A stretch of 64,000 nt of DNA from Candidatus Pacearchaeota archaeon (GTDB lineage: Archaea > Nanobdellota > Nanobdellia > Pacearchaeales > GW2011-AR1), in the NCBI GenBank assembly GCA_017609405.1, contig JAFCDZ010000002.1:22593-86592 (forward strand), in the 5' to 3' direction. Position 1 is the stretch's first letter; each line of letters starts with the position of its first letter. Shown in pieces: positions 8,776-54,931 of the stretch. The position numbers and the translations under genes are program-made. The notes below the pieces were generated by a model. The model was not told where the DNA came from. It saw only the letters and a list, made by a program, of their open reading frames with translations, and ran no database searches.

Positions 8776-9813
8776 TTATGATAATTTCTTTTTATCTATG
8801 ATATCTCTAAGACCATCAATTCCTGAAGGATAAATAATTAGTTTTGGTCTCTTTTTTTCTATTTTTTTGATTATTTTCCATGTCAGAATTGAGTCCTCTA
8901 TTTTTGGGAAAACGCTTTTATTTCCTGAAAAGAAGTTTTCAAATACTGCGATATATGGATTTTTTTTAGTTTCAAGGTTTATTTTTTTATTATCAATTTT
9001 TATATAACTTATTTTTTTATTAAATGCTTTTCCTGTTTCAAAAATAATTTTTCTATTATCAGCTAAAAATTCTATGTAGACATAGGTTTCAGTTTTTGTT
9101 TTTTCCCCTAATTCTTTTTCATATTCTTTATATCGACCTTTCATAAATTTGAGGATCTTTACTTGCTTTATATTCTTTAATGAAGGCTCTAATTTAAACA
9201 GCATATTCAAAAAATGGCTCTGAACCATATCTTTCAAAGCACCAACAGAATCATAATAACTTATTCTTCCCTCTAGTTTAACTTTTTCTAATGATACTAT
9301 CTCTAATTTCTTGAAATCTTTTTTTCTTATTTTTAGAAATGGCTCTTTGAATAAATAGTGGTCTGAAAGAAATGTTTTATCATAGATTGAATATTTTTTT
9401 AGAATTTTTAATAATCTTTTAGCATGCCTTAGGTTTTTTCCAAAAGGTTTTTCAACAAGAATTCTAAGTTTGATTCCTTTTTTTGATAACTCTCCTAGTT
9501 CAATAAAAATTTTCTTTAGTAGGTTTGGAGGAAGTGCTATATAAAAATAATTTATTTCTCTTTTATCAAATAAATCAAAACAGGATTCACAGAAGTTATA
9601 GTTATTAAGAATTATCTTATGATAGTTTAACTTTTTTTTGAAACTTTTTTTACATTTGCCTGGCTGACAAACAAAATTTTGATAATCTTTTGAATTAAAA
9701 TCTCTTCTTCCTAAAGCAATTATTTCTACAGGTTCTTTTATTTGTTGAAGTGCAGAGATTATCTTTCGTCTTACTAAGTCTCCTGTTGAACCAAATATGA
9801 AAAGTTTTTTCAT
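8776..9813 (-). CDS. short glucose-6-phosphate dehydrogenase-like protein (345 aa)
   Basis: Carries the G6PD signatures FGSTGDLVRRKI (NADP-binding GxxGDLxxxK), VEKPFG and SDHYLFKE (compare the RIDHYLGKE active site). It is clearly shorter than canonical G6PD. Confidence 0.65.
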   Translation of the reverse strand: MKKLFIFGSTGDLVRRKIISALQQIKEPVEIIALGRRDFNSKDYQNFVCQPGKCKKSFKKKLNYHKIILNNYNFCESCFDLFDKREINYFYIALPPNLLKKIFIELGELSKKGIKLRILVEKPFGKNLRHAKRLLKILKKYSIYDKTFLSDHYLFKEPFLKIRKKDFKKLEIVSLEKVKLEGRISYYDSVGALKDMVQSHFLNMLFKLEPSLKNIKQVKILKFMKGRYKEYEKELGEKTKTETYVYIEFLADNRKIIFETGKAFNKKISYIKIDNKKINLETKKNPYIAVFENFFSGNKSVFPKIEDSILTWKIIKKIEKKRPKLIIYPSGIDGLRDIIDKKKLS

Positions 9814-31667: not shown

Positions 31668-31766
31668 ATGGAAACAAATGAAAAATATGAAGAACCAGAA
31701 ATCGCAAAGTTCCCTGTATCAGGAGAAGAAGGGAAAATTGCAGAATTTTGGATTGAATCAGATTAA
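31668..31766 (+). CDS. candidate 32-aa precursor peptide METNEKYEEPEIAKFPVSGEEGKIAEFWIESD
   Basis: Not in the ORF track because it is under 60 aa. It lies directly upstream of the PqqD-like and rSAM/SPASM genes. The codon-position signal favours this frame: 26/32 codons end in A/T and 15/32 start with G, whereas in the overlapping track frame only 14/30 codons end in A/T. Confidence 0.45.
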   Translation: METNEKYEEPEIAKFPVSGEEGKIAEFWIESD

Positions 31767-31992
31767 AAGGCCAAAGAGGTTCTTTTTTAGAAAAGAAGAA
31801 CAGGGTTACATAGTTTTTGATAGCTTGAGTTCTCAGATTTTTTTTACAAATAAGACCGCAAAAGAAATAATATCTTTCTTTGATTCTGGATTAACAAAAA
31901 AAGAGATCATTGACAGTATTTCTAAAAAATATAAAATTTCTTCACAGAAAGCTTCAAAAGGGATAAATAAAATTTTAAGGGAAATAGAATGA
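31753..31992 (+). CDS. PqqD-family peptide-binding protein (RiPP recognition element-like)
   Basis: KRFFFRKEEQGYIVFDSLSSQIFFTNKTAKEIISFFDSGLTKKEIIDSISKKY matches the PqqD beta-strand plus winged-helix pattern. The start is uncertain: TTG 31753 is preferred here, the track start is ATG 31678. The gene overlaps the rSAM gene start by 4 nt. Confidence 0.65.
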   Translation: MNQIKRPKRFFFRKEEQGYIVFDSLSSQIFFTNKTAKEIISFFDSGLTKKEIIDSISKKYKISSQKASKGINKILREIE

Positions 31993-32999
31993 ATACTTTT
32001 TCTGCACCAATTTATATGGGGATTGATCTAACTGAACGATGCAATCTTAGATGCATTCATTGTCGCGTTTCAACATCTACAAAAAAGACTAACGAAATTT
32101 CACTTAAGAAATTAAGAGAATTAATAGATACTTTATCAAAAATGAAGGTTATCCAGATAATCTATTCTGGGGGAGAACCTTTTTTAAGGAAAGATATTTT
32201 TGAAATTTTATCTTACTCTGTAAAAAAAGGAATACCCGATCTAATTGTAGTTACAAATGGTCTATTACTGAATGACGAAAAGATATCTAAATTAAAGAAA
32301 ACGGGTATGAAGAAGATAACAATTAGTTTGGATGGTTTAGAAGAATCGCATGATATAATTAGGGGCAAGGGTACATTTAAAAGAACTTTGGATATAATTA
32401 AGAGGTTGGTAAAAGAAGGATTTGAAGTTAAAGTTACAATGACATTAAATAAACTAAACAAAAATGATGTTCTCCAATTATCTGTTTTATTAAATATGAT
32501 TGGTGTAAAAAGAATTAATGTTGGGAATTTAATGCCTTGTGGAAGAGGGAAAGACTTATGGGATCAATCGTTAGACTTTAAGGAGAAATATGAATTGTTC
32601 AATAAAATAAAAAAAGTTAATAATAAATATGGAGAGAATTTCATAAATTTTGAGTCTTCTTTTTTATCAGAACCGAGACTTTCTAAATCAGAACAAAAAA
32701 TTGCTTCCTTTTTAGGTTGTAGGGGAGGAAGAACTTATTGTGCGATTCTTGCTAATGGAGATGTTGTTGCCTGTAAAATGCTCCCCCATGTTGTTGCTGG
32801 GAATATTTACAAAACGAATTTTTCTAAGATTTGGAAAGATGATAAAAATTGGAAAATTTGGAGAGAGGGTAAATTACCCAAAAAATGCCGTCTTTGCAAA
32901 TATGGGGAGGCTTGTAGAGGGGGCTGTAAAGCTATTAGCTTTTACAAATATGGGAGATTTGATGTTCCAGATCCAAGATGTATCGGGCCCTTCACTTAA
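31989..32999 (+). CDS. radical SAM enzyme with a C-terminal SPASM domain
   Basis: CNLRCIHC (CxxxCxxC), GGEPFL, and a C-terminal auxiliary-cluster pattern GCRGG..C(x12)C ... CRLCKYGEACRGGC ... C. Confidence 0.85.
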   Translation: MNTFSAPIYMGIDLTERCNLRCIHCRVSTSTKKTNEISLKKLRELIDTLSKMKVIQIIYSGGEPFLRKDIFEILSYSVKKGIPDLIVVTNGLLLNDEKISKLKKTGMKKITISLDGLEESHDIIRGKGTFKRTLDIIKRLVKEGFEVKVTMTLNKLNKNDVLQLSVLLNMIGVKRINVGNLMPCGRGKDLWDQSLDFKEKYELFNKIKKVNNKYGENFINFESSFLSEPRLSKSEQKIASFLGCRGGRTYCAILANGDVVACKMLPHVVAGNIYKTNFSKIWKDDKNWKIWREGKLPKKCRLCKYGEACRGGCKAISFYKYGRFDVPDPRCIGPFT

Positions 33000-33855
33000 A
33001 CGGCTTCACAAAATTTTCATTAAAATATAAAGAGTAATACCTATGAAGACCTTGGCATTTTTCTCTCTTTTTACACTCCGAACATTTTTTTGGAAAATAT
33101 CGCCCTTCCAATCCGGTTAATATCTTTCCTTGTTTGATCAACCAAACATCCCAATTTACATTTTCAGCTCTTTTATCATTAATGATGCATAAGGGTATAT
33201 TTTCAAACAAGATTTTTTTATTATTACCAATTTTATTTATTGCTTTTTTTATTTTTCTTAACGAAACCAAATGCTTCTTGGAATAGTTTTTGTGTCCTTT
33301 AATGGGATAAAATCTCGGATAGGAAATTCTAATTTCCTCGATAAAAGGATATTTTTCTTCGAAGAAATTAATTGTTTTATACAGAGATCTATAATTATAT
33401 CTAGTAATCACCGTGTTTGTTGATATTTTAACCTTACTTCTATATTTTCTTAATAATTCCATATTTTTTAACAATTTCTCAAAATTTTTTGATTGTGTTA
33501 TTTTCTCATAAGAATTTTTATCATGCGAGTGAAATGATATTTTTAATTCATTTAACCCTACTTTAATAATCTTTCTAAGTAGTTTTTCATTTAAAAAAAT
33601 TAGGTTAGTCTCAATTAAAGTATACTTTTGATTTGCTTTTGCAAACTTTATAATCTCAGATATATCTTTCCTAAGTAAAACTTCCCCTCCTGAAAGAATC
33701 AATTTTCTGAAAGGTTTAGATAATTTTATGTCTTTTTTGATTTCATTTATGGTTGGATTTGGATGAGGGTGTTTTTTAACAGAACAAAAAACACAATTAT
33801 GGGGGCATTCAGTTGTAACGTGAATTTCTGCTTCTTTATTTATCATTTTCTTCAA
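32992..33855 (-). CDS. radical SAM enzyme (second, non-SPASM type)
   Basis: CPHNCVFC near the N-terminus, SGGEVLL, and a short C-terminal CSECKKREKC motif. 287 aa. Confidence 0.75.
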   Translation of the reverse strand: MKKMINKEAEIHVTTECPHNCVFCSVKKHPHPNPTINEIKKDIKLSKPFRKLILSGGEVLLRKDISEIIKFAKANQKYTLIETNLIFLNEKLLRKIIKVGLNELKISFHSHDKNSYEKITQSKNFEKLLKNMELLRKYRSKVKISTNTVITRYNYRSLYKTINFFEEKYPFIEEIRISYPRFYPIKGHKNYSKKHLVSLRKIKKAINKIGNNKKILFENIPLCIINDKRAENVNWDVWLIKQGKILTGLEGRYFPKKCSECKKREKCQGLHRYYSLYFNENFVKPFK

Positions 33856-34858
33856 ATATTCTTATATAACTCTCTACAGTGATTTTTTCAATTTCTTCTT
33901 TTGTGTGCATTTTTATAAATTTAATGATTTTATCTAAAGGTACTTTAAAATTTTCATGGTCTATTTTTAAAAACAATTCTTTTGGAATTTCTAACGGAAG
34001 ATTAAGTTCTTTTTTTAAAGAATCAAAGGAATGAAATAATCCCCGACTATATACCTTAAACCAATCTTTTCTGGAAAAATTCTTTGTTTTTAAGATAGTT
34101 TCATTTACTTTTTTTTCAATGATCTTATAGACTTTTTTCAATTCAATGTCTTTGATTAAACGACCATCAATTTCAACGTAAGAGGCTACTTTCTTAGGAG
34201 ATTGAAATAAATGATTAAAAAAATCTAAATCAATCTCTCCCCTAATCTCTTCAACGATTTTTATTTTTTTGAAAGGAAATTCTTCTGTTAAGTTAAGTGA
34301 AATAGGATTAAGATTAAAAAACTCTTTAATGAATATCCTCTTACTCCCTTTTTCATAAACCCCATGAAACTCATGCCCTAATCTCATCATTGTAGGGTAG
34401 AGTATCTCCAAATAAAACAATAACAATGCAGATAATTTGTTGCTTATTATTAGATTGTTCTCATTTGAGTTTAGTTTGTCAATTTCAAAAGAATATTTTT
34501 TTAGCCGATTATTTTCATCACAAAAAACATCTTCTCTATAATATCCTATACAGCTTATTAAATCCTTTGCAAGCTCTATTCTTTGATTAAACTTCAAAAC
34601 TTTTGCACTATGAAAGAGAGTAAAGTATTGTGCAATTTTCGAGGGATTTTCGAATAATCTTGCTATCTCTTCAATCGAGTAACCTTTGTCTTTTAATCTT
34701 TTAATTGAAGAATATAACTCTCTAATAAAAAAGCTTCCAACATAATATTCTGCTTCATTAGGGATGAATGGCCATAATGCACTCGCAGTGTCTCCCTTAT
34801 GCAACTTTGACAAATCTCTTCCAATTACTTTACACAACTTTTTAATAGATTTATTCAT
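33836..34858 (-). CDS. hypothetical protein, operon partner of the rSAM and PEP-swivel genes
   Basis: 340-aa ORF whose ends overlap both neighbours (translational coupling). No family recognised by eye. Confidence 0.5.
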   Translation of the reverse strand: MNKSIKKLCKVIGRDLSKLHKGDTASALWPFIPNEAEYYVGSFFIRELYSSIKRLKDKGYSIEEIARLFENPSKIAQYFTLFHSAKVLKFNQRIELAKDLISCIGYYREDVFCDENNRLKKYSFEIDKLNSNENNLIISNKLSALLLFYLEILYPTMMRLGHEFHGVYEKGSKRIFIKEFFNLNPISLNLTEEFPFKKIKIVEEIRGEIDLDFFNHLFQSPKKVASYVEIDGRLIKDIELKKVYKIIEKKVNETILKTKNFSRKDWFKVYSRGLFHSFDSLKKELNLPLEIPKELFLKIDHENFKVPLDKIIKFIKMHTKEEIEKITVESYIRIFEENDK

Positions 34859-35186
34859 TTTCTAAAATAGTTACTTTGTTGTTAGTAGCATCCACCTCAA
34901 CGAGCATCCCTTCTTTTAACTTTGATGAAATGCCTTCAACACCCAATATACAAGGTTTATTCATTTCTCTGCTGACAATAGCTAGATGACATAATGAACC
35001 CCCCCTCTCACTTATAATGGCAGATGCTTTTATAAATGCTAAGGAAAACAATGGAGAGTTATTTGTTGTTACAACTATATCCCCCTCTTTTACCCTTTCA
35101 ATATCTTCTACTGAATCCACTATTTTTATTTTTCCGATATATCTTCCTGGATTAGCTACAACCCCCCTAAATGATTTTAATTCCAT
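34851..35186 (-). CDS. stand-alone PEP-utilising-enzyme mobile (swivelling phosphohistidine) domain protein
   Basis: 111 aa. GVVANPGRYIGKIKIV..GDIVVTTNNSP......AIISERGGSLCHLAIVSREMNKPCILGV matches the PEP-utiliser mobile domain, including the phospho-acceptor His. Confidence 0.75.
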   Translation of the reverse strand: MELKSFRGVVANPGRYIGKIKIVDSVEDIERVKEGDIVVTTNNSPLFSLAFIKASAIISERGGSLCHLAIVSREMNKPCILGVEGISSKLKEGMLVEVDATNNKVTILENE

Positions 35187-36823
35187 TTTTCTTTAGCAAC
35201 CATTACTTCTATTAAAACAGGATGCTTTTCTTTAAGACTTTTTAATCCTTTATTAATTTGCTTTTTTATTTCACTTTTATTTGAAATCTTGTAATACCTT
35301 ATATTAAAACTTTCAGCTAATTTATCAAATGAGGGATTAGTAAACTCTGTCATAAATGATTTTCCGTACTTTTTTATCTGAGAATGGTATATTGGTCCAA
35401 GAATGCCGTTGTTAAGGACTATTGCCATTATTGGAATTTTATAATTAGATGCTGTCATTAATTCCATTGCAGTCATTTGAAATCCCCCATCCCCTTGGAT
35501 TGAAACTACGACTCTATCTTTATTTCCCATTTTACTTCCGATAGCCTCTCCTAGAGAACATCCTATTGGTGCAAAACCAGTACATACAATCTGCGTTCTC
35601 GGTTTGTAAATTTTGAAATATCTCTGAACCCATGCAATAGACTCTGTGCATACTATTGAATCTTTTGGTAATATTTTTCTTAATTCAGCAATAAAAGTTT
35701 GAGGTTTTAAAGGTGTAGAATTCGCTTTCATTTCAGGATAATTAAAATAACCTTTAGATCTATATTTCTTTATTAAACCAGAATAATCCTTCTTTTGTTT
35801 TTTAATTGTCAACTCTAATTTTGAAATAATCTCTGAAATATCTCCTTGAAGAAGATAATCTATCTTATAATTCTTAGTTATGTCCCTTGATTTTATATCT
35901 ATTCTAACAATTTTAGTGTTATGAAAATTAAAACTCCAATTATTGGTAGAAAATTGACTTAAACTAGAGCCAATGACAATTAAAAAATCCACACCAGATT
36001 TAATATACTCGTTTGCTGATTTTTGTCCTGTCAAACCAATTGTCCCAAGTGAAAGTTTATGGTCATCTGAAATTATACCCCTCCCTTTTAGAGTTGTTAA
36101 TACTGGAATTTTTGATTTATTAATAAATTTCAAGATAGCTTCTCGATGTTTAATAGCCCCTCCCCCAAGCAATATTGCCGGCTTTTTAGATTTTTGCAAT
36201 TCTAAAGAAATTTTTTTAATTTTTTCAATCGGAATCTCTCTTTTTAATCTAATCTTATTTTCTTTTTCAAATAATTCAAAAAGATTATCCTCAAAATCAA
36301 TTTCCTTTTGCATTACATCGGCGGGAATTTCTAAATATGCTGGACTAGGACGATGATCGTTTAAGGTAAAATAAACCTTCTTTAATATTTGGATAATCTT
36401 CTTTTCGTCTTCAATAACTTCAGCGTAACCGGTAATTTCCTTAAATATTTTTAATTGACTTATAGTTCTTCCAATCCCTGTTGACTCCTGAAAACTTGCC
36501 CTTCCTTTCAATGAACTCGAAACTTGGCCGGATAGAACTAATATTGGCTGAGAATCGTAATATGCTGCAGCTATACTTGTTACTAAATTTGTTGCGCCTG
36601 GACCGACACTCCCGAAACAGGAACACGGCAGTCCAGTAGACTTAGAATATCCACTAGCCATAAAGCCAGCACCCTCTTCATGTTTTGCTAAAATTAATTT
36701 TATCTTCTTACTTTTATTAATTTCATCTAAAAGACTCATGTTTGAACCCGGAACCCCAAAGCAATATTTTATTCCTAAAAATTTCATAAATTTGACAATA
36801 ATCTGATTAATTGTTTTTCTCAT
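35177..36823 (-). CDS. thiamine-diphosphate-dependent enzyme, acetolactate synthase large-subunit-like
   Basis: N-terminal Pyr domain (GVPGS..HEEGAGFMA..GPGATN), a central domain, and the C-terminal ThDP motif GDGGFQM...NNG. 548 aa. Confidence 0.8.
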   Translation of the reverse strand: MRKTINQIIVKFMKFLGIKYCFGVPGSNMSLLDEINKSKKIKLILAKHEEGAGFMASGYSKSTGLPCSCFGSVGPGATNLVTSIAAAYYDSQPILVLSGQVSSSLKGRASFQESTGIGRTISQLKIFKEITGYAEVIEDEKKIIQILKKVYFTLNDHRPSPAYLEIPADVMQKEIDFEDNLFELFEKENKIRLKREIPIEKIKKISLELQKSKKPAILLGGGAIKHREAILKFINKSKIPVLTTLKGRGIISDDHKLSLGTIGLTGQKSANEYIKSGVDFLIVIGSSLSQFSTNNWSFNFHNTKIVRIDIKSRDITKNYKIDYLLQGDISEIISKLELTIKKQKKDYSGLIKKYRSKGYFNYPEMKANSTPLKPQTFIAELRKILPKDSIVCTESIAWVQRYFKIYKPRTQIVCTGFAPIGCSLGEAIGSKMGNKDRVVVSIQGDGGFQMTAMELMTASNYKIPIMAIVLNNGILGPIYHSQIKKYGKSFMTEFTNPSFDKLAESFNIRYYKISNKSEIKKQINKGLKSLKEKHPVLIEVMVAKEKWN

Positions 36824-40778: not shown

Positions 40779-41212
40779 TTCAACCTCTTTTACTCTAATA
40801 ATAAAATACTATATAAAAAGTTTTGTTTTTATTGGGCTGGCTCTATTGAAAAATTTTGATTTATATAATTAAGTTAGAATTAATAGGCAATACCTTTTGG
40901 GGTTAAACATTTCTTCAAACAATATCTACCAGTGTTTCTGTTGCGTTAGGTTGAACAAAACAAGAAATCTTTGCTGAACACTGCCTCTTGAGAATTATTG
41001 TATTAATCATTTTTATTTACTGAATAAGTTCACATTAATATTTTAGCAATGTTCAACAAGTGCTTTTAGTTTTTAGTTAGTTAAGAAAGCCCTGATAATT
41101 CCTAATTTTTAAGATTTGCGAAGCCTTTATAAATAATTATCTTCTTTTTTAAATAAAAATCATTTTTATTAAGCGAAAAATTTAAAAACCTTTGAACTAT
41201 TATAGAAGTAAA

Positions 41213-43109
<1,897 letters not shown>

Positions 43110-49591: not shown

Positions 49592-51829
49592 CTATTCAAC
49601 AATTTTAAACGAGATTCCTGGATTTTCATTTACACCAAAGATATATATCTCTGTGTTATTGTATAAAAGAGTAAAATAATTTTCATTGAAAAATACATCT
49701 CTTAAATCTTCTTTTCTTATTACTATTACTGCCGAATCTATTCTACTTTCTCTTTCAATCCACTCTTTTGAGAATCTTTTTTCACAGATTCCTTTAATCC
49801 CTAAAACACAGGGTCCATAAAATTTTGTATACATTTCATTATTTAGTATATCTTTTATTTTTGAATAAGTTCTGAGAGAGTCCTCTTGTGAGAAAATAGA
49901 TGAAACAAGCCTGTTCATAAACTTCTTTTCTTCACTTTGCCCAACAGGTTTAATATATGGCATTATTTTTAATCCCGATATTGACGCTAATTGATAATAT
50001 GTTAAAATATCAATAGAAGATTTTGCAGGAGATATTATGATTGTATCTTTTGTTAAATGCTTACTCATCCAATTTCCAGCATTATAACAAGAAGGTTCAA
50101 CCGTACTATAATAACCATTTTCATTCTCCCACCACTTCATATAGGAAAAACTTGGAATAATACTAAACATAATGATTGTGGAAAACACCATAATTAAGGT
50201 TATCTTCTTAAAATAATCAAGATAACTTTTCTTTTTTGTAGGAAATAGGTAAAGAACTTCTATTGATTTTCCAATAAATAATGACATAAACACTATTAAA
50301 ATTCCAAAAGACCTATACACCCCAATATCTAATAAAAATAAACTTATTCCAGTTAAAACAATAAGAACCCCCAATAAAGGTCTAATCTCTCTTTTTGAAT
50401 CAATTAGATAATATAACAGACCAAAGAAAAAAAACAACCAGAAAAAAAGATTAATATAAACATTTCCAAAAGAATTATCCAAAACTCTTTTTTTTGTAAA
50501 AATACCAACAAGGTCTTTTATTCTTTCATTAAATGTTTGATAAAGAACAGAGTTAGTATTTGTATGAACTAAAAAATTAGTTATCTTTGCGATATTTAAG
50601 ATACCAAAAAATTGTAAAAATGCTAATAAGAATAATGTCATAAATAAAATAACAAGAAGAATGTCTCCTATTTTTGGAAATCTGTCTTCAAGAAATATAA
50701 AGAATAAATAAACTAAAAGGATAACACTAACTAAAAGACCCATTAAAATATGATTAAAGAATAAAATACTAATAATTAAAATTATAATAAAATAATACTC
50801 TTTCTTGTTTCCTTTTATAAAAAAAGTTGATATAAGAATTAAAAAAACAATAATTGAAACTATCAAATAATGAATCGGGCCAATTGAAAAAAGATTAAAA
50901 ATTTTGTTAGACATTATTCCAAAAAGTAAAAGAATAATTGTGCCAAAAACAGAGAAGGATTTAATAATATCTTCCCTATTTTCTTTTTCACATACTTCTT
51001 TTTTAAAATATCTATTTATCATACCAAATATAAATGGGGTTGAAATAAAGATTATTGATTTTGGAGCAACTAAGAATGGTGAACCAATCTCTCTTGTTGA
51101 AAGGATTATTAAGAAGCAAAAAGAGATAAGAAAAGATATCTCTCTTTTTATTCTAAAGCCATTTAAGAAATAAAAGATGCCTGTTAAAAAAAGAAATGGG
51201 AATAAAAAGTGAGCATAGAACCAGCCAAGGGAGAAAACATCAAGATTATATAAATAAGAATTAAGAGCAATAAAAATTGAAATACTATCAATATAAGCAA
51301 AACTTCTGAAAATCTGTGAATAATTTAAAACATAATTTGCTAAATGGGCGTGGGTGTATAAAAAATCCCAAGTTACCCACAACGGGAATTTATTAAATCT
51401 CAAAACAAATAACGAAACACCAAAGGATAGAATTAACAAAATAAAAAAAGTAATCAAAGAATTTCGCGATACCTCAATGAAATTTTCCTCTTTTTTCAAA
51501 AATTTATAAAAGTAATAAACAAAATAAAATCCAAAAATAATAACTGAAAGATTAAATAAATTAAACAGGTTAATAGAATACAAAGATATAGCAAGACCTA
51601 TTATTAATAAAAATCCGAGAGACCATGAAATAAAAAAATAACCAATAAAATCAATTTTCTTTTTGATTTTTCCGAGGTTCTCCAAAAAAATATTTCCCAT
51701 CAAATAGGGCAAGATAATAAAAAAGGGAATAGCAAAAATTGCTTTTAAAATAATTGAAGATAAGAAAAAACTAATCATAATACTTATCAGAGTATATAAA
51801 AAAAATATTTTCTCTAATTTTATTCTCAT
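49592..51829 (-). CDS. large polytopic membrane protein, GT-C-like (possible divergent oligosaccharyl/glycosyl transferase)
   Basis: At least 13 hydrophobic helices followed by a soluble C-terminal domain that begins KWWENENGYY. The gene lies inside a glycosyltransferase cluster. The family assignment is tentative. Confidence 0.4.
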   Translation of the reverse strand: MRIKLEKIFFLYTLISIMISFFLSSIILKAIFAIPFFIILPYLMGNIFLENLGKIKKKIDFIGYFFISWSLGFLLIIGLAISLYSINLFNLFNLSVIIFGFYFVYYFYKFLKKEENFIEVSRNSLITFFILLILSFGVSLFVLRFNKFPLWVTWDFLYTHAHLANYVLNYSQIFRSFAYIDSISIFIALNSYLYNLDVFSLGWFYAHFLFPFLFLTGIFYFLNGFRIKREISFLISFCFLIILSTREIGSPFLVAPKSIIFISTPFIFGMINRYFKKEVCEKENREDIIKSFSVFGTIILLLFGIMSNKIFNLFSIGPIHYLIVSIIVFLILISTFFIKGNKKEYYFIIILIISILFFNHILMGLLVSVILLVYLFFIFLEDRFPKIGDILLVILFMTLFLLAFLQFFGILNIAKITNFLVHTNTNSVLYQTFNERIKDLVGIFTKKRVLDNSFGNVYINLFFWLFFFFGLLYYLIDSKREIRPLLGVLIVLTGISLFLLDIGVYRSFGILIVFMSLFIGKSIEVLYLFPTKKKSYLDYFKKITLIMVFSTIIMFSIIPSFSYMKWWENENGYYSTVEPSCYNAGNWMSKHLTKDTIIISPAKSSIDILTYYQLASISGLKIMPYIKPVGQSEEKKFMNRLVSSIFSQEDSLRTYSKIKDILNNEMYTKFYGPCVLGIKGICEKRFSKEWIERESRIDSAVIVIRKEDLRDVFFNENYFTLLYNNTEIYIFGVNENPGISFKIVE

Positions 51830-51830
51830 T

Positions 51831-53066
51831 TTATTTCCCCTCTTTTTTGTTATGTAATGATAATTTTTTATAAATCTTTTCAATTTTTTCAATTATCTTT
51901 TTTTCATTAAACTTTTTTACAAAATCCCTATAAGCATTTTTTCCCATTTTTTTTAGAATTTTTTTATTTTTCATGAGCTTATTTAATATCTCCTTTAATT
52001 GTCTTTTATCTCCAACATTAAATAAATATCCATTATAACCCTCTTTTATTAATTCTGGATTCCCTCCAATATTTGTTGCAACTACAGGGATTTCGCTTCT
52101 AAAATTCTCTAAAATTGACATCGAGCAGTTTTCAAAATAAATTGAAGGGACAATTCCAACATCCATTTCTTTTCTAAATTCTTCTAATTTTTCATTTTTT
52201 ATATTTCCGTAAAAAATTATTCTTTTGTCATTTTCAGCAATTTTTTTAAAATAATCTTTTATCTTCTTTCGCCCTTCTCCAAAAAAATGTATTCTTATGT
52301 TATTATCTTTTATTTCTTTGACTGCTCTTATTATGGTTTGTCCACCTTTGTGTAATTGATATCCTCCTGTAAAAATAATATCAAAAGTTTTTTTCTTCTC
52401 ATCACTTTTTTTATTTTTTTTATCCTCTAAAAAATTATATATGACTTCTTTTTTTGAATTTTTGAAAAACCCTTCTTTTTCATAAATATCCTTTATTGCT
52501 TTTGTAGGAAAAATAACCACTTCTGGTTTTGCTATCATCTTGTTTATTTTTGAATATGCTTTTGATATCATCTTGTAAACAAAACTATTCATTAAGGGAT
52601 ATCTTATTCCAGCAATTTCATCTAATTCAGGTAAATTATTCATTGGGAAAATCAGGTTTATGCTATGTATTGTTACAATAATTGGTATATGTGCTCTTTT
52701 CACTGCAGAATAAACAGAGAGAGATAAATAAGGAATTTCATGTATATGGACCACATCTGGTTTTTCTTTTTCTAATATCTTTTTTATTTTAAAATAGGAG
52801 TCCGGATTCCAAAAATTTAAAACAAAGGTTCTTAATCTTCCCATTAAAGAAATCTTATTTCTTCTTAAAAAAGGAATCCATACGCCAAAAGGATAAATGC
52901 GATATATTTTTATTCCTTGGCTATCTTTAAAAAAGCTTTTTCCAGTTGTTATTATTATAACCTCATGCCCCCTTCTTTTTAGAGACTCTGCAAGTATCTT
53001 AGTATATATAGTTGAGCCACCAATTTCATAAGGAGGATATGCAAAATTAATCAGGCAGATTTTCAT
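51831..53066 (-). CDS. GT4-family glycosyltransferase
   Basis: The N-terminal MKICLINFAYPPYEIGGS pattern and a C-terminal GT-B block (PSIYFENCSMSILENFRSEIPVVATNIGGNPELI). Confidence 0.8.
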   Translation of the reverse strand: MKICLINFAYPPYEIGGSTIYTKILAESLKRRGHEVIIITTGKSFFKDSQGIKIYRIYPFGVWIPFLRRNKISLMGRLRTFVLNFWNPDSYFKIKKILEKEKPDVVHIHEIPYLSLSVYSAVKRAHIPIIVTIHSINLIFPMNNLPELDEIAGIRYPLMNSFVYKMISKAYSKINKMIAKPEVVIFPTKAIKDIYEKEGFFKNSKKEVIYNFLEDKKNKKSDEKKKTFDIIFTGGYQLHKGGQTIIRAVKEIKDNNIRIHFFGEGRKKIKDYFKKIAENDKRIIFYGNIKNEKLEEFRKEMDVGIVPSIYFENCSMSILENFRSEIPVVATNIGGNPELIKEGYNGYLFNVGDKRQLKEILNKLMKNKKILKKMGKNAYRDFVKKFNEKKIIEKIEKIYKKLSLHNKKEGK

Positions 53067-53527: not shown

Positions 53528-54931
53528 TTAAAAAGATATCTTCGATGGCCCCTTATTATCATATATTCTTAGAATATCATACTTAAAGAATTCTTCAATC
53601 TTACCTATATTTCCAATAAGTTTTAAATTCTTTTCAGAACTATTTATCTGTTTGACAAATTTGATCTCTTTTATTATCTTGCATTTATTATTTTCACACT
53701 CTTCTATCTTTTTATATTGATCTTTTTTTACACTATCTACTTTTGTTTTATTATCTTCATAGATAAAAATAATGTATTTATAATTTTCAAAAAATTTAAT
53801 TCCACAAGCAATAGGTTTTATTGTTTTTGATTCATCCTGTTTATGATAAAAAGGGAATATCTCTATGAATCTTTTATTTTTATAGACTTTTACAGAAACC
53901 CCTGCTTTAATAGATAAATCATCTTTATTTGTCCAAGAAACAATCATTTCATAACCTTTATTTTTGTTATCTTCTGTTAGTTCTGAGATTATTATGTCTT
54001 TTCTTGCATTCTTATAATCTAACCAACTTTCGTTATGTTCCTTTTTAGTATCTTCAGACAATACTCTTTTCCATTTACCATCAATATTAAAAATCAATTC
54101 CCACGGAGAAATATAAAAAATTTCTCTGTTTTCATTGAATATATGTATTCCATCAGTATTTTTTCTTGATGTTGCTATCTCAAAAAAATAATCTTCATCA
54201 TCTTTTTTTTCATCTATCTTTATGAAGATTTTTTTTGTTTTGTTGTATAATCCATAAACTCTTGTTAGATAAATTAATGAATTTGAATCTGTATATATTT
54301 TATTAAAGGAGCCAAAGATATCTGCAGAGTAGTTATCTGATTCTAATGAGATATAATCTCTTGTGTTTTGAGGTATTTTTATCCTATCTAAATTTATAAA
54401 TCCTTTTCTATCATTCAAGTTTATTATTCTTCCATTTTGAAGAACTAATTTATCAAATTTCTCTGGCCAGTTCTTTTTGTTTACCAAACCTAAGCTATGC
54501 TCTTCTATTTTTTCTGGTCTTGAAAAATTTCCATCAATTTCATAGGTTATTAAACTTCCTTCTAATGAATAAACTTCTCTTACAAATGAGGGGTCTTTTG
54601 TTTTATTTGAGTATTCAATTATTAATTTATTCATTTCAACATTTATTTTTTTGTTATCTTCACCACTAAACCAAGATTTTTTTCCAGAAGGGCTATAAAT
54701 TAATTTTTCCACCCCATTGTATTTTAACAAGGATTGCCATGGGCTTATTACAAACAATTTTTGATTATTAACATAGACATTAATGTATGGCTCCTTAGTA
54801 ATTTTATCAACTTCAATAACCATATCTCTATTTTTTATAACATAAGGAGTATTCCTTGGACTGAGAGCAAATAAAATAACTAAAATCAGAAACAATACAA
54901 AACTCACCTCTCTTATTTTATTTTTATTCAT
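53528..54931 (-). CDS. hypothetical secreted/anchored protein
   Basis: 467 aa with an N-terminal hydrophobic anchor. No family recognised. Confidence 0.5.
   Translation of the reverse strand: MNKNKIREVSFVLFLILVILFALSPRNTPYVIKNRDMVIEVDKITKEPYINVYVNNQKLFVISPWQSLLKYNGVEKLIYSPSGKKSWFSGEDNKKINVEMNKLIIEYSNKTKDPSFVREVYSLEGSLITYEIDGNFSRPEKIEEHSLGLVNKKNWPEKFDKLVLQNGRIINLNDRKGFINLDRIKIPQNTRDYISLESDNYSADIFGSFNKIYTDSNSLIYLTRVYGLYNKTKKIFIKIDEKKDDEDYFFEIATSRKNTDGIHIFNENREIFYISPWELIFNIDGKWKRVLSEDTKKEHNESWLDYKNARKDIIISELTEDNKNKGYEMIVSWTNKDDLSIKAGVSVKVYKNKRFIEIFPFYHKQDESKTIKPIACGIKFFENYKYIIFIYEDNKTKVDSVKKDQYKKIEECENNKCKIIKEIKFVKQINSSEKNLKLIGNIGKIEEFFKYDILRIYDNKGPSKISF

Follow-up and report, generated by a model that had tools for sequence, protein, structure and literature searches.

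A putative tailoring operon with a proposed split phosphotransfer module beside a radical SAM peptide cassette in a DPANN archaeon

Analysis of a 64,000-nucleotide stretch of DNA from a Candidatus Pacearchaeota archaeon (the window) identified a four-gene operon that is probably the tailoring half of a mobile gene cluster of DPANN archaea, built around a radical-SAM-modified ribosomal peptide and including a split phosphotransfer module. The operon encodes an AHAS-like ThDP-dependent enzyme, a stand-alone phosphohistidine swivel domain, a 340-aa protein of an uncharacterised family (X) and a second radical SAM (rSAM) enzyme.

Gene organization of the operon

The operon lies on the minus strand of this small DPANN-type archaeon as four intact ORFs, each junction of which is overlapping (Table 1). 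Direct reading of the junctions gave a 10-nt overlap between the ThDP and swivel genes (ATGGAATTAA) and an 8-nt overlap between the swivel and X genes (ATGAATAA); X and the second rSAM gene overlap by 20 nt if the latter begins at its TTG codon and by 11 nt if it begins at the ATG at 33846, which is the start of the database protein P0171 (284 aa). The stop codon of the rSAM gene (TGA, 32994-32992) falls 8 nt within the convergent SPASM gene. The ORF and junction readings confirm the arrangement described in an earlier note on this DNA, in which four overlapping genes terminate 8 nt inside the SPASM gene. The window DNA is 30% G+C and chance would not yield ORFs of such size; moreover, full-length homologues of all four proteins are found elsewhere with their order preserved. 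The tight packing and the synteny in ten distinct related loci bear out the proposal in the note of a real four-gene unit, and its reservation that the genes might not be syntenic in related genomes therefore falls away. The minimal unit is smaller than these four genes, as the swivel domain and X form a conserved core that is also found alone.

Table 1. Features of the operon and the adjacent peptide cassette in the window.
Feature	Position	Strand	Length	Family or model
Precursor peptide	31668-31766	+	32 aa	
PqqD-like peptide-recognition protein	31678-31992	+	104 aa (listed ORF)	PqqD, E 5e-4 (below Pfam cutoff)
Radical SAM/SPASM peptide maturase	31989-32999	+	336 aa	Radical_SAM + SPASM; convergent with operon
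Second rSAM, compact, cluster-specific	32992-33855	-	287 aa from TTG 33855; 284 aa from ATG 33846	PF04055 (Radical_SAM), E 3e-22; C-terminal 4-Cys motif
X, uncharacterised family	33836-34858	-	340 aa	AF2 pLDDT 92.4
Stand-alone phosphohistidine swivel domain	34851-35186	-	111 aa	PF00391, E 4e-20
AHAS-like ThDP-dependent enzyme	35177-36823	-	548 aa	Pfam TPP_enzyme_N/M/C, ~E 1e-33 apiece

The peptide cassette and its linkage to the operon

The precursor peptide (METNEKYEEPEIAKFPVSGEEGKIAEFWIESD) is conserved in its own frame in L004, L005, L008, L033 and L138, with more distant forms in L139 and L140; a core of I-x-E-x-W-x-E is common to all, followed in most by a serine and an acidic tail. The PqqD-like protein matches the WgkC-like PqqD chaperone with an E-value of 3e-8. 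Its gene probably begins near 31753 (~79 aa), either following the peptide gene or overlapping its end, and its orthologues in L004, L138 and L140 are 75-83 aa long and separate from the peptide ORF. The SPASM maturase scores highest in NCBIfam against the mycofactocin maturase MftC, at 191 bits (cutoff 265), with WgkB-like and other families next. Like MftABC and PqqADE, the cassette combines a PqqD-like protein and a SPASM rSAM enzyme with a short precursor whose C-terminal core is conserved; however, the maturase falls below the MftC cutoff and far below that of PqqE (109 against 381), the core reads I-x-E-x-W-x-E-S-D and not GVY or E-x3-Y, and the accessory genes are those for the ThDP enzyme, swivel domain, X and second rSAM. 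The invariant Trp of the core, which a Lys or Arg precedes by a few residues, recalls the Trp-crosslinking radical SAM peptide families, which include StrB, WgkB and WprB (PMC11851443). WgkB and WgkC rank among the better NCBIfam matches of the maturase (157 bits) and the PqqD-like protein (34 bits), yet these scores are far under the respective cutoffs of 650 and 110, and those families lack ThDP and phosphotransfer genes.

The full set of genes (peptide, PqqD-like, SPASM rSAM, ThDP, swivel, X and second rSAM) is present in ten loci (the window, L004, L005, L007, L008, L012, L033, L138, L139 and L140), arranged in three different orders and flanked by unrelated genes. The SPASM maturase gene stands beside the operon in all full clusters, the ThDP gene is always directly upstream of the swivel gene, and the ThDP-swivel-X order is unchanged across the ten loci. 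Essentially only this type of cluster carries X, the second rSAM and the ThDP clade. A natural fusion of the SPASM rSAM to the ThDP enzyme (P0211) shows 34% identity over its SPASM part (E 1e-47) and 39% over its ThDP part, and sister clusters encode an extra protein with an invariant HExxH motif, a putative peptidase, upstream of the ThDP gene. The retention of gene content through three gene orders, together with this fusion, supports the suggestion in the earlier note that enzymes of the operon decorate what the neighbouring peptide cassette produces. In the literature searched, neither ThDP enzymes nor PEP-synthase-type modules had a precedent in peptide maturation.

The swivel domain and its partner protein

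The swivel protein is a PEP-utilizers mobile domain with the motif GGSLCHLAIVSRE, of which His67 is the putative phospho-acceptor. Among PDB entries it is closest to the central domain of PEP synthase (8a8e, E 8e-20); the C-terminal domain of rifampicin phosphotransferase (RPH; 5fbs, E 2e-11) also matches, and the catalytic His is in register in both alignments; this His is retained in all partner swivels with a readable motif (~35 loci). The swivel gene is directly upstream of X, abutting or overlapping it, in 100% of the ~35 loci examined, the two domain matches lying -14 to +13 nt apart. X is thus the obligate partner of the swivel domain, as the earlier note had anticipated in naming the 340-aa protein a candidate partner, and the two are fused in L013. 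There, a single ORF (P0153) carries PPDK_N (residues 49-289), swivel (323-392) and X (466-781) in a Rosetta-stone fusion, with X in the place of the pyruvate-binding domain of PEP synthase; P0169 is a second, truncated example. PPDK_N, swivel and X are three separate genes in L133 and L112, PPDK_N fragments lie beside the swivel-X pair in L014 and L047, and in the distant relative L139 a single strand carries the peptide, PqqD-like, SPASM, ThDP, swivel and X genes, with PPDK_N closing the operon. Searches with tblastn and an HMM detected neither PPDK_N nor any other ATP-binding partner across the 64-kb window and ~13 close-clade loci; an ATP-grasp enzyme would therefore have to act in trans for these clusters.

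X had no matches among Pfam, NCBIfam or PADLOC models, and its AF2 model found no match in the PDB or BFVD (best PDB E 0.22, TM <0.2). A profile search recovered 304 representatives, with W29, P30, R108, C113, E151, E163, H165, G166, Y168 and D212 conserved family-wide. The possibility that X adopts an ATP-grasp/PPDK-N-like fold, raised in the earlier note, was not borne out: a model of such confidence (pLDDT 92) without a PDB match speaks against X as an ATP-grasp, and relatives carry a true PPDK_N fused or alongside. We infer instead that X is a new fold, serving as the acceptor-substrate-binding domain of a split module of the PEP-synthase or RPH type. The window swivel resembles domains of both enzymes, and relatives (P0153, L133, L112 and L139) keep the order of ATP-grasp, swivel and third domain of PEP synthase, PPDK and RPH. 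In contrast to those enzymes, the window parts are separate polypeptides, X is neither a PEP-utilizers_C TIM barrel nor the rifampicin-binding domain of RPH, and the ATP-grasp gene is missing from the window.

Phosphatases recur near X, with HAD and His_Phos_1 genes in L136, a HAD-like gene in L112 and an X-HAD fusion (P0085). In L001, L002 and L010 swivel-X stands alone, with none of the peptide, ThDP and rSAM genes, and in a large sister clade, with X proteins of ~375 aa, metallo-beta-lactamase, MBL-TIR fusion, CHAT and PLD-like genes come after X; the acceptor of swivel-X therefore need not be a peptide.

The ThDP-dependent enzyme and the second radical SAM enzyme

The ThDP enzyme contains the GDG-x24-NN motif (residues 444-472) and a catalytic Glu within HEEGAG. 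Against TIGR00118, its top NCBIfam family, it scores 357 bits where the equivalog cutoff is 538, and it is under the cutoff for 55 of the 55 families matched. The nearest solved structure is BbmA (8x3x, 281 bits), with E. coli AHAS I at 220 bits, and homologue scores of at least 503 bits in cluster members drop to 389 bits outside. While the window enzyme has its three ThDP domains, catalytic Glu and GDG-x24-NN motif in common with AHAS and BbmA, it is below every equivalog cutoff and falls in its own cluster-limited clade, of which one member is fused to a SPASM maturase. By its sequence, the enzyme belongs to a cluster-specific AHAS-like clade and is not a biosynthetic acetolactate synthase; the reservation in the earlier note that it might be a bona fide one is answered by these scores and by this separate clade.

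The second rSAM has the CxxxCxxC motif (C17/C21/C24) and four conserved C-terminal cysteines (C223/C258/C261/C267) in a twitch-like pattern, and lacks a recognisable peptide-recognition domain. It has 22 close homologues, beyond which scores fall from 202 to 80 bits; these are found on contigs of the same sizes as the X-bearing ones (100566, 14226, 7323 and 6318 bp, among others). The best folds for its AF2 model (pLDDT 91) are viperin (6q2q, TM 0.65, E 7e-12) and MoaA (1tv7, TM 0.63), the substrates of which are nucleotides. Extra C-terminal cysteines are also a feature of MoaA; however, the sequence scores are only 59-76 bits against cutoffs of 180-325, and the four-Cys enzyme is confined to the peptide cluster.

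Discussion

These results point to an operon in which PPDK_N, supplied in trans for the window and its close relatives, would phosphorylate His67 of the swivel domain, and the charged swivel would pass the phosphate to a substrate bound by X, which would replace the pyruvate-binding domain of PEP synthase or the rifampicin-binding domain of RPH. Phosphorylation may be the final modification of the product, or may make an oxygen a leaving group as in PigC-type condensations. The ThDP enzyme would act as an AHAS-like carboligase or decarboxylase, forming or cleaving a C-C bond adjacent to a 2-oxo group, and may work on, or for, a peptide-derived intermediate. In the prodigiosin pathway, PigC is a condensing enzyme of PPDK_N and swivel domains, whose phosphotransfer turns an oxygen into a leaving group, and PigD is a ThDP enzyme. 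The two systems are alike in placing an AHAS-superfamily ThDP enzyme and a PEP-synthase-type phosphotransfer enzyme in one cluster; they differ in that the window swivel is no member of the PigC or RedH families (43 bits against cutoffs of 1300-1350), there is no pyrrole pathway, and the window system is split and tied to a ribosomal peptide.

It is conceivable, though rather unlikely, that the operon synthesises or alters a free small molecule, such as a phosphorylated acyloin or diol from 2-oxo acids, with a product that is peptide-independent or attached later and a peptide cassette that is a co-transferred neighbour. Free 2-oxo acids are normal substrates of AHAS-like enzymes, L005 and L012 carry an inserted SDR ketoreductase, and swivel-X lacks a peptide gene at many loci, where it lies beside small-molecule enzymes (in L013, aconitase-type subunits, a methyltransferase and an rSAM) or near HAD and His_Phos_1 phosphatases and a CN_hydrolase fusion. 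Against this, the cassette and operon genes stay together across three orders down to 30-45% protein identity, a fusion of SPASM maturase and ThDP enzyme is known, and the HExxH protein is encoded within the same operon in sister clusters. It is hardly credible that the ThDP gene is an ordinary biosynthetic acetolactate synthase among unrelated neighbours: acetolactate synthase large subunits head its NCBIfam matches and some sources label its relatives as acetolactate synthase, yet it scores below the cutoff of all 55 families, no ilv or leu gene is present in the cluster or among ten other window ORFs scanned, its clade is confined to the cluster, and it overlaps the swivel gene in an order fixed in ten loci.

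We consider it improbable that the genes form a conflict or defence module acting on nucleotides, with a viperin/MoaA-like rSAM, a kinase-like swivel-X pair and the peptide as toxin or signal. The structural matches of the second rSAM, its weak pVip profile matches, the neighbours of the ~375-aa X clade, and the MazG-like, Schlafen-type helicase and DNA methylase genes adjoining L140 are in line with such a role. However, a TM of 0.65 is usual for any rSAM core, with the peptide maturases SkfB and SuiB ranking close behind; the pVip matches are generic, the SPASM maturase outscoring the second rSAM; the ThDP enzyme, swivel and X draw nothing from PADLOC models; the viral contigs searched held nothing related; and the close clade has a canonical peptide-maturase architecture. 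More doubtful still is a complete minimal kinase of swivel and X, in which X itself is the nucleotide-binding, ATP-grasp-like half. The close clade encodes no further ATP-binding protein nearby, and X has a Gly-rich loop, modelled with low confidence, ahead of its invariant WPF (KGDT in the close clade, KGGG or KSGG in L139 and L140); set against this, the confident model lacks ATP-grasp topology, real PPDK_N domains accompany X in P0153, L133, L112 and L139, and X follows the swivel, the usual position of acceptor-binding domains.

Taken together, the constant pairing of a free swivel domain with a protein of unmatched fold, within a conserved cluster, suggests that this DPANN-archaeal cluster looks like unexplored enzyme chemistry rather than ordinary amino-acid metabolism.

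Organization of the operon and its setting

The earlier note's claim that four overlapping minus-strand genes end inside the convergent SPASM gene was confirmed by the open reading frames, all four of which are intact, by direct reading of the junctions, and by Pfam and NCBIfam domain assignments. The domains comprise a three-domain ThDP enzyme, a PEP-utiliser mobile domain (the swivel) and a radical SAM (rSAM) enzyme; the 340-residue protein, termed X here, has no family. The ThDP stop and swivel start share 10 nt (ATGGAATTAA), and the swivel stop and X start share 8 nt (ATGAATAA), both overlaps being read directly at the junctions. X and the second rSAM gene overlap by 20 nt from the TTG start of the latter, or by 11 nt from an ATG at 33846, which is the start of the 284-residue database protein; the stop codon of the rSAM gene lies 8 nt within the SPASM gene. 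Neither a phosphonate-type PEP mutase nor a phosphonopyruvate decarboxylase-type ThDP domain was found by Pfam and NCBIfam in any of the seven genes of the operon and the adjoining peptide cassette.

The window carries archaeal markers (an Rpb2-type RNA polymerase subunit, aIF5B and Elp3) and has a G+C content of about 30%. Relatives of X come from metagenome-assembled and single-amplified genomes labelled Woese-, Pace-, Nano- and Micrarchaeota, labels that place the window in the DPANN group. The GroES/GroEL pair, which from its sequence we take to be a bacterial-type group I chaperonin, may have been acquired horizontally by this otherwise archaeal stretch. Two large reading frames fall in the part of the window with the lowest G+C content (24-26%, 48-58 kb).

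Features of the cluster, its window and related loci. Positions are window coordinates unless a locus (L number) is named.
Feature	Position	Strand	Remarks
Precursor peptide METNEKYEEPEIAKFPVSGEEGKIAEFWIESD	31668-31766	+	32 aa, upstream of convergent SPASM gene
PqqD-like ORF, as listed	31678-31992	+	104 aa; N-terminal ~30 codons overlap peptide ORF in another frame
SPASM rSAM maturase	31989-32999	+	
Second rSAM enzyme	32992-33855	-	287 aa from TTG
X	33836-34858	-	340 aa
Swivel	34851-35186	-	111 aa
ThDP enzyme	35177-36823	-	548 aa
GroES/GroEL pair	41192-43109	+	
Large ORF	49592-51892	-	766 aa, no Pfam family
Large ORF	53528-54931	-	467 aa, no Pfam family
~393-aa protein	L004 4893-6074		upstream of ThDP gene; invariant HExxH
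~393-aa protein	L005 4840-6024		upstream of ThDP gene; invariant HExxH
~393-aa protein	L033 5657-6847		upstream of ThDP gene; invariant HExxH
Shorter paralogue of ~393-aa protein	L033 7569-8330		
Swivel fusion	L045 1611-2510	-	
Swivel fusion	L031 2210-3220	+	
Second-rSAM remnant	L136 2345-2488		truncated or frameshifted
Second-rSAM remnant	L006 ~9037-9184		truncated or frameshifted

A seven-gene cluster with a conserved precursor core

The precursor peptide of the window ends in ...EFWIESD and is kept in its own frame in five related loci (L004, L005, L008, L033 and L138), with more distant forms in L139 (...KKGIFEAWAESSDL) and L140 (...SRIYEAWIESDD...). All share the core I-x-E-x-W-x-E, followed in most by Ser and an acidic tail. 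The PqqD-like gene probably starts downstream of the listed position, near 31753, because its orthologues are 75-83 residues long and separate from the peptide reading frame. The cassette brings together, in one place, what characterises a RaS-RiPP cluster: a short precursor whose leader varies while its core is kept, a PqqD-type recognition protein, and a maturase of the rSAM/SPASM kind. By gene content it is classed with these clusters, and modification of the peptide is predicted.

The full set of peptide, PqqD-like protein, SPASM maturase, ThDP enzyme, swivel, X and second rSAM enzyme is present in the window and nine other loci (L004, L005, L007, L008, L012, L033, L138, L139 and L140), in three gene orders and with unrelated flanks; the sub-order ThDP enzyme, swivel, X is invariant. 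Protein identities to the window drop in step across these loci, reaching 35-40% for the ThDP enzyme, 42-45% for the second rSAM enzyme, 37% for the SPASM maturase and 30-31% for X in L139 and L140. In the database protein P0211 (876 residues) a SPASM-maturase homologue (34% identity along its full length, E = 1e-47) is joined to a ThDP enzyme (39% identity), a second Rosetta stone that links the cassette half to the operon half; we know of no described fusion of a SPASM rSAM maturase to an acetohydroxyacid synthase (AHAS)-like ThDP enzyme. These genomic comparisons indicate that the four operon genes are one unit, tied to the peptide cassette. The sister clusters L005 and L012 carry an additional SDR, and L004, L005 and L033 encode a protein of about 393 residues, a putative leader peptidase by its HExxH motif, that is not present in the window.

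The ThDP enzyme belongs to a dedicated clade

The ThDP enzyme has all three ThDP domains, the catalytic Glu and the GDG-x24-NN motif, and scores 357 bits against the biosynthetic AHAS model TIGR00118, for which the cutoff is 538; it is below the cutoff of every listed NCBIfam family. Its closest solved relative is BbmA (8x3x, 281 bits), with E. coli AHAS I at 220 bits. In a large sequence collection its homologues separate into the cluster members, at 503 bits or more, and all others, at 389 bits or less. No ilv or leu gene occurs among the profile-scanned reading frames, which cover part of the window, and the neighbours of the ThDP gene are the swivel, X and rSAM genes; neither an AHAS small regulatory subunit nor an ilv/leu context was found around it. 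Scores and gene context alike assign the enzyme to a dedicated AHAS-like clade, not to housekeeping acetolactate synthase. A literature search on BbmA and CsmA returned nothing relevant.

X adopts a predicted fold without a match in the PDB

Searches with X against Pfam, NCBIfam and PADLOC gave no match, nor did 46 diverse family members against Pfam at E values up to 1, and none of the 25 relatives in a collection of 5.8 billion sequences carries a Pfam domain. An AlphaFold model built from a 23-sequence alignment (pLDDT 92.4, pTM 0.91) begins with a helical bundle, continues into a central sheet of six strands and ends in helices. Foldseek found no match to this model in the PDB (best E 0.22, TM below 0.2) or in BFVD; the PDB set included structures of rifampicin phosphotransferase (RPH) and PEP synthase, yet X matched neither. 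The X profile likewise gave nothing credible against PDB sequences, the best hit (E = 0.084) being a stray match. The earlier note had proposed a check for an ATP-grasp or PPDK-N-like fold in X; since the model is confident yet these searches were empty, the answer is negative, and the coexistence of X with a true PPDK_N (ATP-grasp) domain in its relatives also rules out X as the ATP-grasp. A known acceptor domain, either the PEP-utilizers_C TIM barrel or the rifampicin-binding domain of RPH, was not found in X by Pfam or Foldseek.

A profile search of 1.84 billion representatives extended the X family to 304 clusters at 50% identity, mostly stand-alone proteins of 340-390 residues. Two members are fusions: P0085 joins X to a HAD phosphatase, and P0153 (796 residues, encoded as a single reading frame in L013) consists of PPDK_N (49-289), swivel (323-392) and X (466-781). 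In P0153, X occupies the exact place of the pyruvate-binding domain of PEP synthase, and this position leads us to infer that X holds the acceptor substrate in a phosphotransferase of the His-swivel type. The whole family keeps W29, P30, R108, C113, E151, E163, H165, G166, Y168 and D212. Residues 19-28 form an invariant loop, LHKGDTASALWPF, modelled with low confidence (pLDDT ~60) and Gly-rich at the equivalent position in L139 and L140 (KGGG and KSGG); it may bind phosphate or dock the swivel.

X is paired with a phosphohistidine swivel

The window swivel is a PF00391 mobile domain (E = 4e-20) with the catalytic-His motif GG-x-x-x-H-x-A-I (GGSLCHLAIVSRE). Its nearest matches are PEP synthase 8a8e (central domain, E = 8e-20) and RPH 5fbs (C-terminal domain, E = 2e-11), with the catalytic His in register with His67 of the swivel. 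We compared the neighbourhoods of about 35 distinct X loci, from a family of 304 representatives; these loci were L001-L015, 21 true matches from a metagenome scan with a degenerate DNA pattern for GHEFHGPY, and L136-L140. At every script-scored locus the swivel match ends between -14 and +13 nt from the start of the X match, or the two are fused, and the gene tables of the five loci added later display the same adjacency. The catalytic His is kept in every partner swivel with a readable motif. The pairing of swivel and X is obligate in the loci compared, and among those with the pair only, no common third gene was found. Two loci also hold swivel domains fused to other N-terminal parts, one a CN_hydrolase fragment and the other a 260-residue unknown region; the latter belongs to a second gene with a swivel, located after X.

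A phosphotransfer model is weakest at the source of the His67 phosphate: neither tblastn nor an HMM search found PPDK_N (PF01326) anywhere in the 64-kb window, and the close-clade loci gave none either. Elsewhere a stand-alone PPDK_N gene adjoins the pair, in L133 (in the order PPDK_N, swivel, X) and L112, and PPDK_N fragments flank it in L014 and L047. The archaeal operon of L139 runs peptide, PqqD-like protein, SPASM rSAM, ThDP enzyme, swivel, X and, as the last gene, PPDK_N. The ~393-residue protein of L004, L005 and L033 was considered as the missing ATP-grasp and rejected, given its invariant HExxH and weakly DUF3990-like N-terminus.

The second radical SAM enzyme

The second rSAM enzyme (PF04055) has its CxxxCxxC motif at C17, C21 and C24, and its model matches rSAM folds at a probability of 1.0. 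Pfam did not find a SPASM domain (PF13186) in it; a conserved C-terminal pattern of four Cys (C223, C258, C261 and C267) is compatible with a twitch-like auxiliary cluster. There are only 22 close homologues, after which the score falls from 202 to 80 bits, and several of them lie on contigs equal in length to contigs that carry X (100566, 14226, 7323 and 6318 bp, among others). In the model (pLDDT 91) the nearest structures are viperin (TM 0.65) and MoaA (TM 0.63), followed by BlsE, SkfB and SuiB; as modelled, the fold is a generic compact rSAM core that does not fix the substrate. In L136 and L006, remnants of the second rSAM gene follow an intact swivel-X pair, so that at least some pair-only loci look like decayed clusters that have kept swivel and X.

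The wider X family

In a clade of X proteins of about 375 residues, a gene of the metallo-beta-lactamase fold (MBL) usually comes next after the pair (L082, L041/L130 and L026), and is fused to TIR in L133 and L126; L026 also has PLD-like and CHAT genes. These surroundings look like those of a conflict or defence system. PADLOC gave no model match for the ThDP enzyme, swivel, X or the context of this clade, and only generic pVip matches for both rSAM enzymes. Phosphatases recur near X: besides the HAD fusion P0085, L136 has HAD and His_Phos_1 genes, and L112 a HAD-like one. The neighbours in L013 are an rSAM enzyme, a methyltransferase and aconitase-type subunits. In sum, gene context supports phosphate chemistry and shows that the swivel-X module is employed in several settings, some of them like conflict systems. 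A viral origin was rejected, there being no relatives in viral contigs, and a literature search on swivel/TIR/MBL systems returned nothing relevant.

Discussion

Taken together, these results describe a real and conserved feature: a predicted phosphotransferase of separate parts, in which a new fold partners the His swivel, lies inside an rSAM peptide cluster with a ThDP enzyme. We infer four steps for its action. An ATP-grasp would charge His67 of the swivel; the swivel would then dock on X and phosphorylate an X-bound substrate, either as the final modification or to activate an oxygen as a leaving group. The ThDP enzyme, working closely with the SPASM maturase, would make or cut a C-C bond beside a 2-oxo group, and the two rSAM enzymes would carry out radical chemistry at the conserved Glu/Trp core. 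With its catalytic His on a swivel, the swivel-X module would work like PEP synthase and RPH; it differs from these and from PPDK in that the window module has neither an ATP-grasp nor a known acceptor domain.

In its peptide half the cluster is similar to the mycofactocin, PQQ and Trp-crosslink systems, although the window proteins fall below all of the family cutoffs: the SPASM maturase scores 191 bits against an MftC cutoff of 265, and the precursor ends in EFWIESD where the MftA type ends in GVY. It is improbable, in our judgement, that DPANN archaea use the cluster to turn the I-x-E-x-W-x-E core of the peptide into a new small molecule or cofactor, in the manner of PQQ or mycofactocin. 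We are similarly doubtful that this route would unite a C-C step by a SPASM-coupled ThDP enzyme with His-phosphotransfer by an undescribed fold, a combination unprecedented in peptide maturation. As a sub-variant, clades that lack the ATP-grasp would charge the swivel His with an acyl-phosphate produced by the ThDP enzyme. In prodigiosin biosynthesis PigD is a ThDP enzyme and PigC a PEP-synthase-type enzyme; the window recalls this co-occurrence, with no homology beyond the domains. A literature search on ThDP or PEP-utilising enzymes in peptide maturation returned nothing relevant.

The split phosphotransferase within the peptide cluster bears on both enzymology and the host. The X family is uncharacterised, and its confidently predicted fold has no counterpart in the PDB. 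Since X serves a free phosphohistidine swivel as dedicated partner, the mechanism of PEP synthase and RPH would reach into a new architecture of separate parts. A ribosomal-peptide pathway would also gain a ThDP enzyme and a phosphohistidine relay, neither found in such a role in our search. As the cluster genes are few and small, reconstitution is feasible. The genomes of DPANN archaea are very small, and these archaea are supposed to have little secondary metabolism; because the seven genes are kept all the same and travel from one genomic context to another, their product likely matters for the symbiotic or competitive lifestyle of the host.
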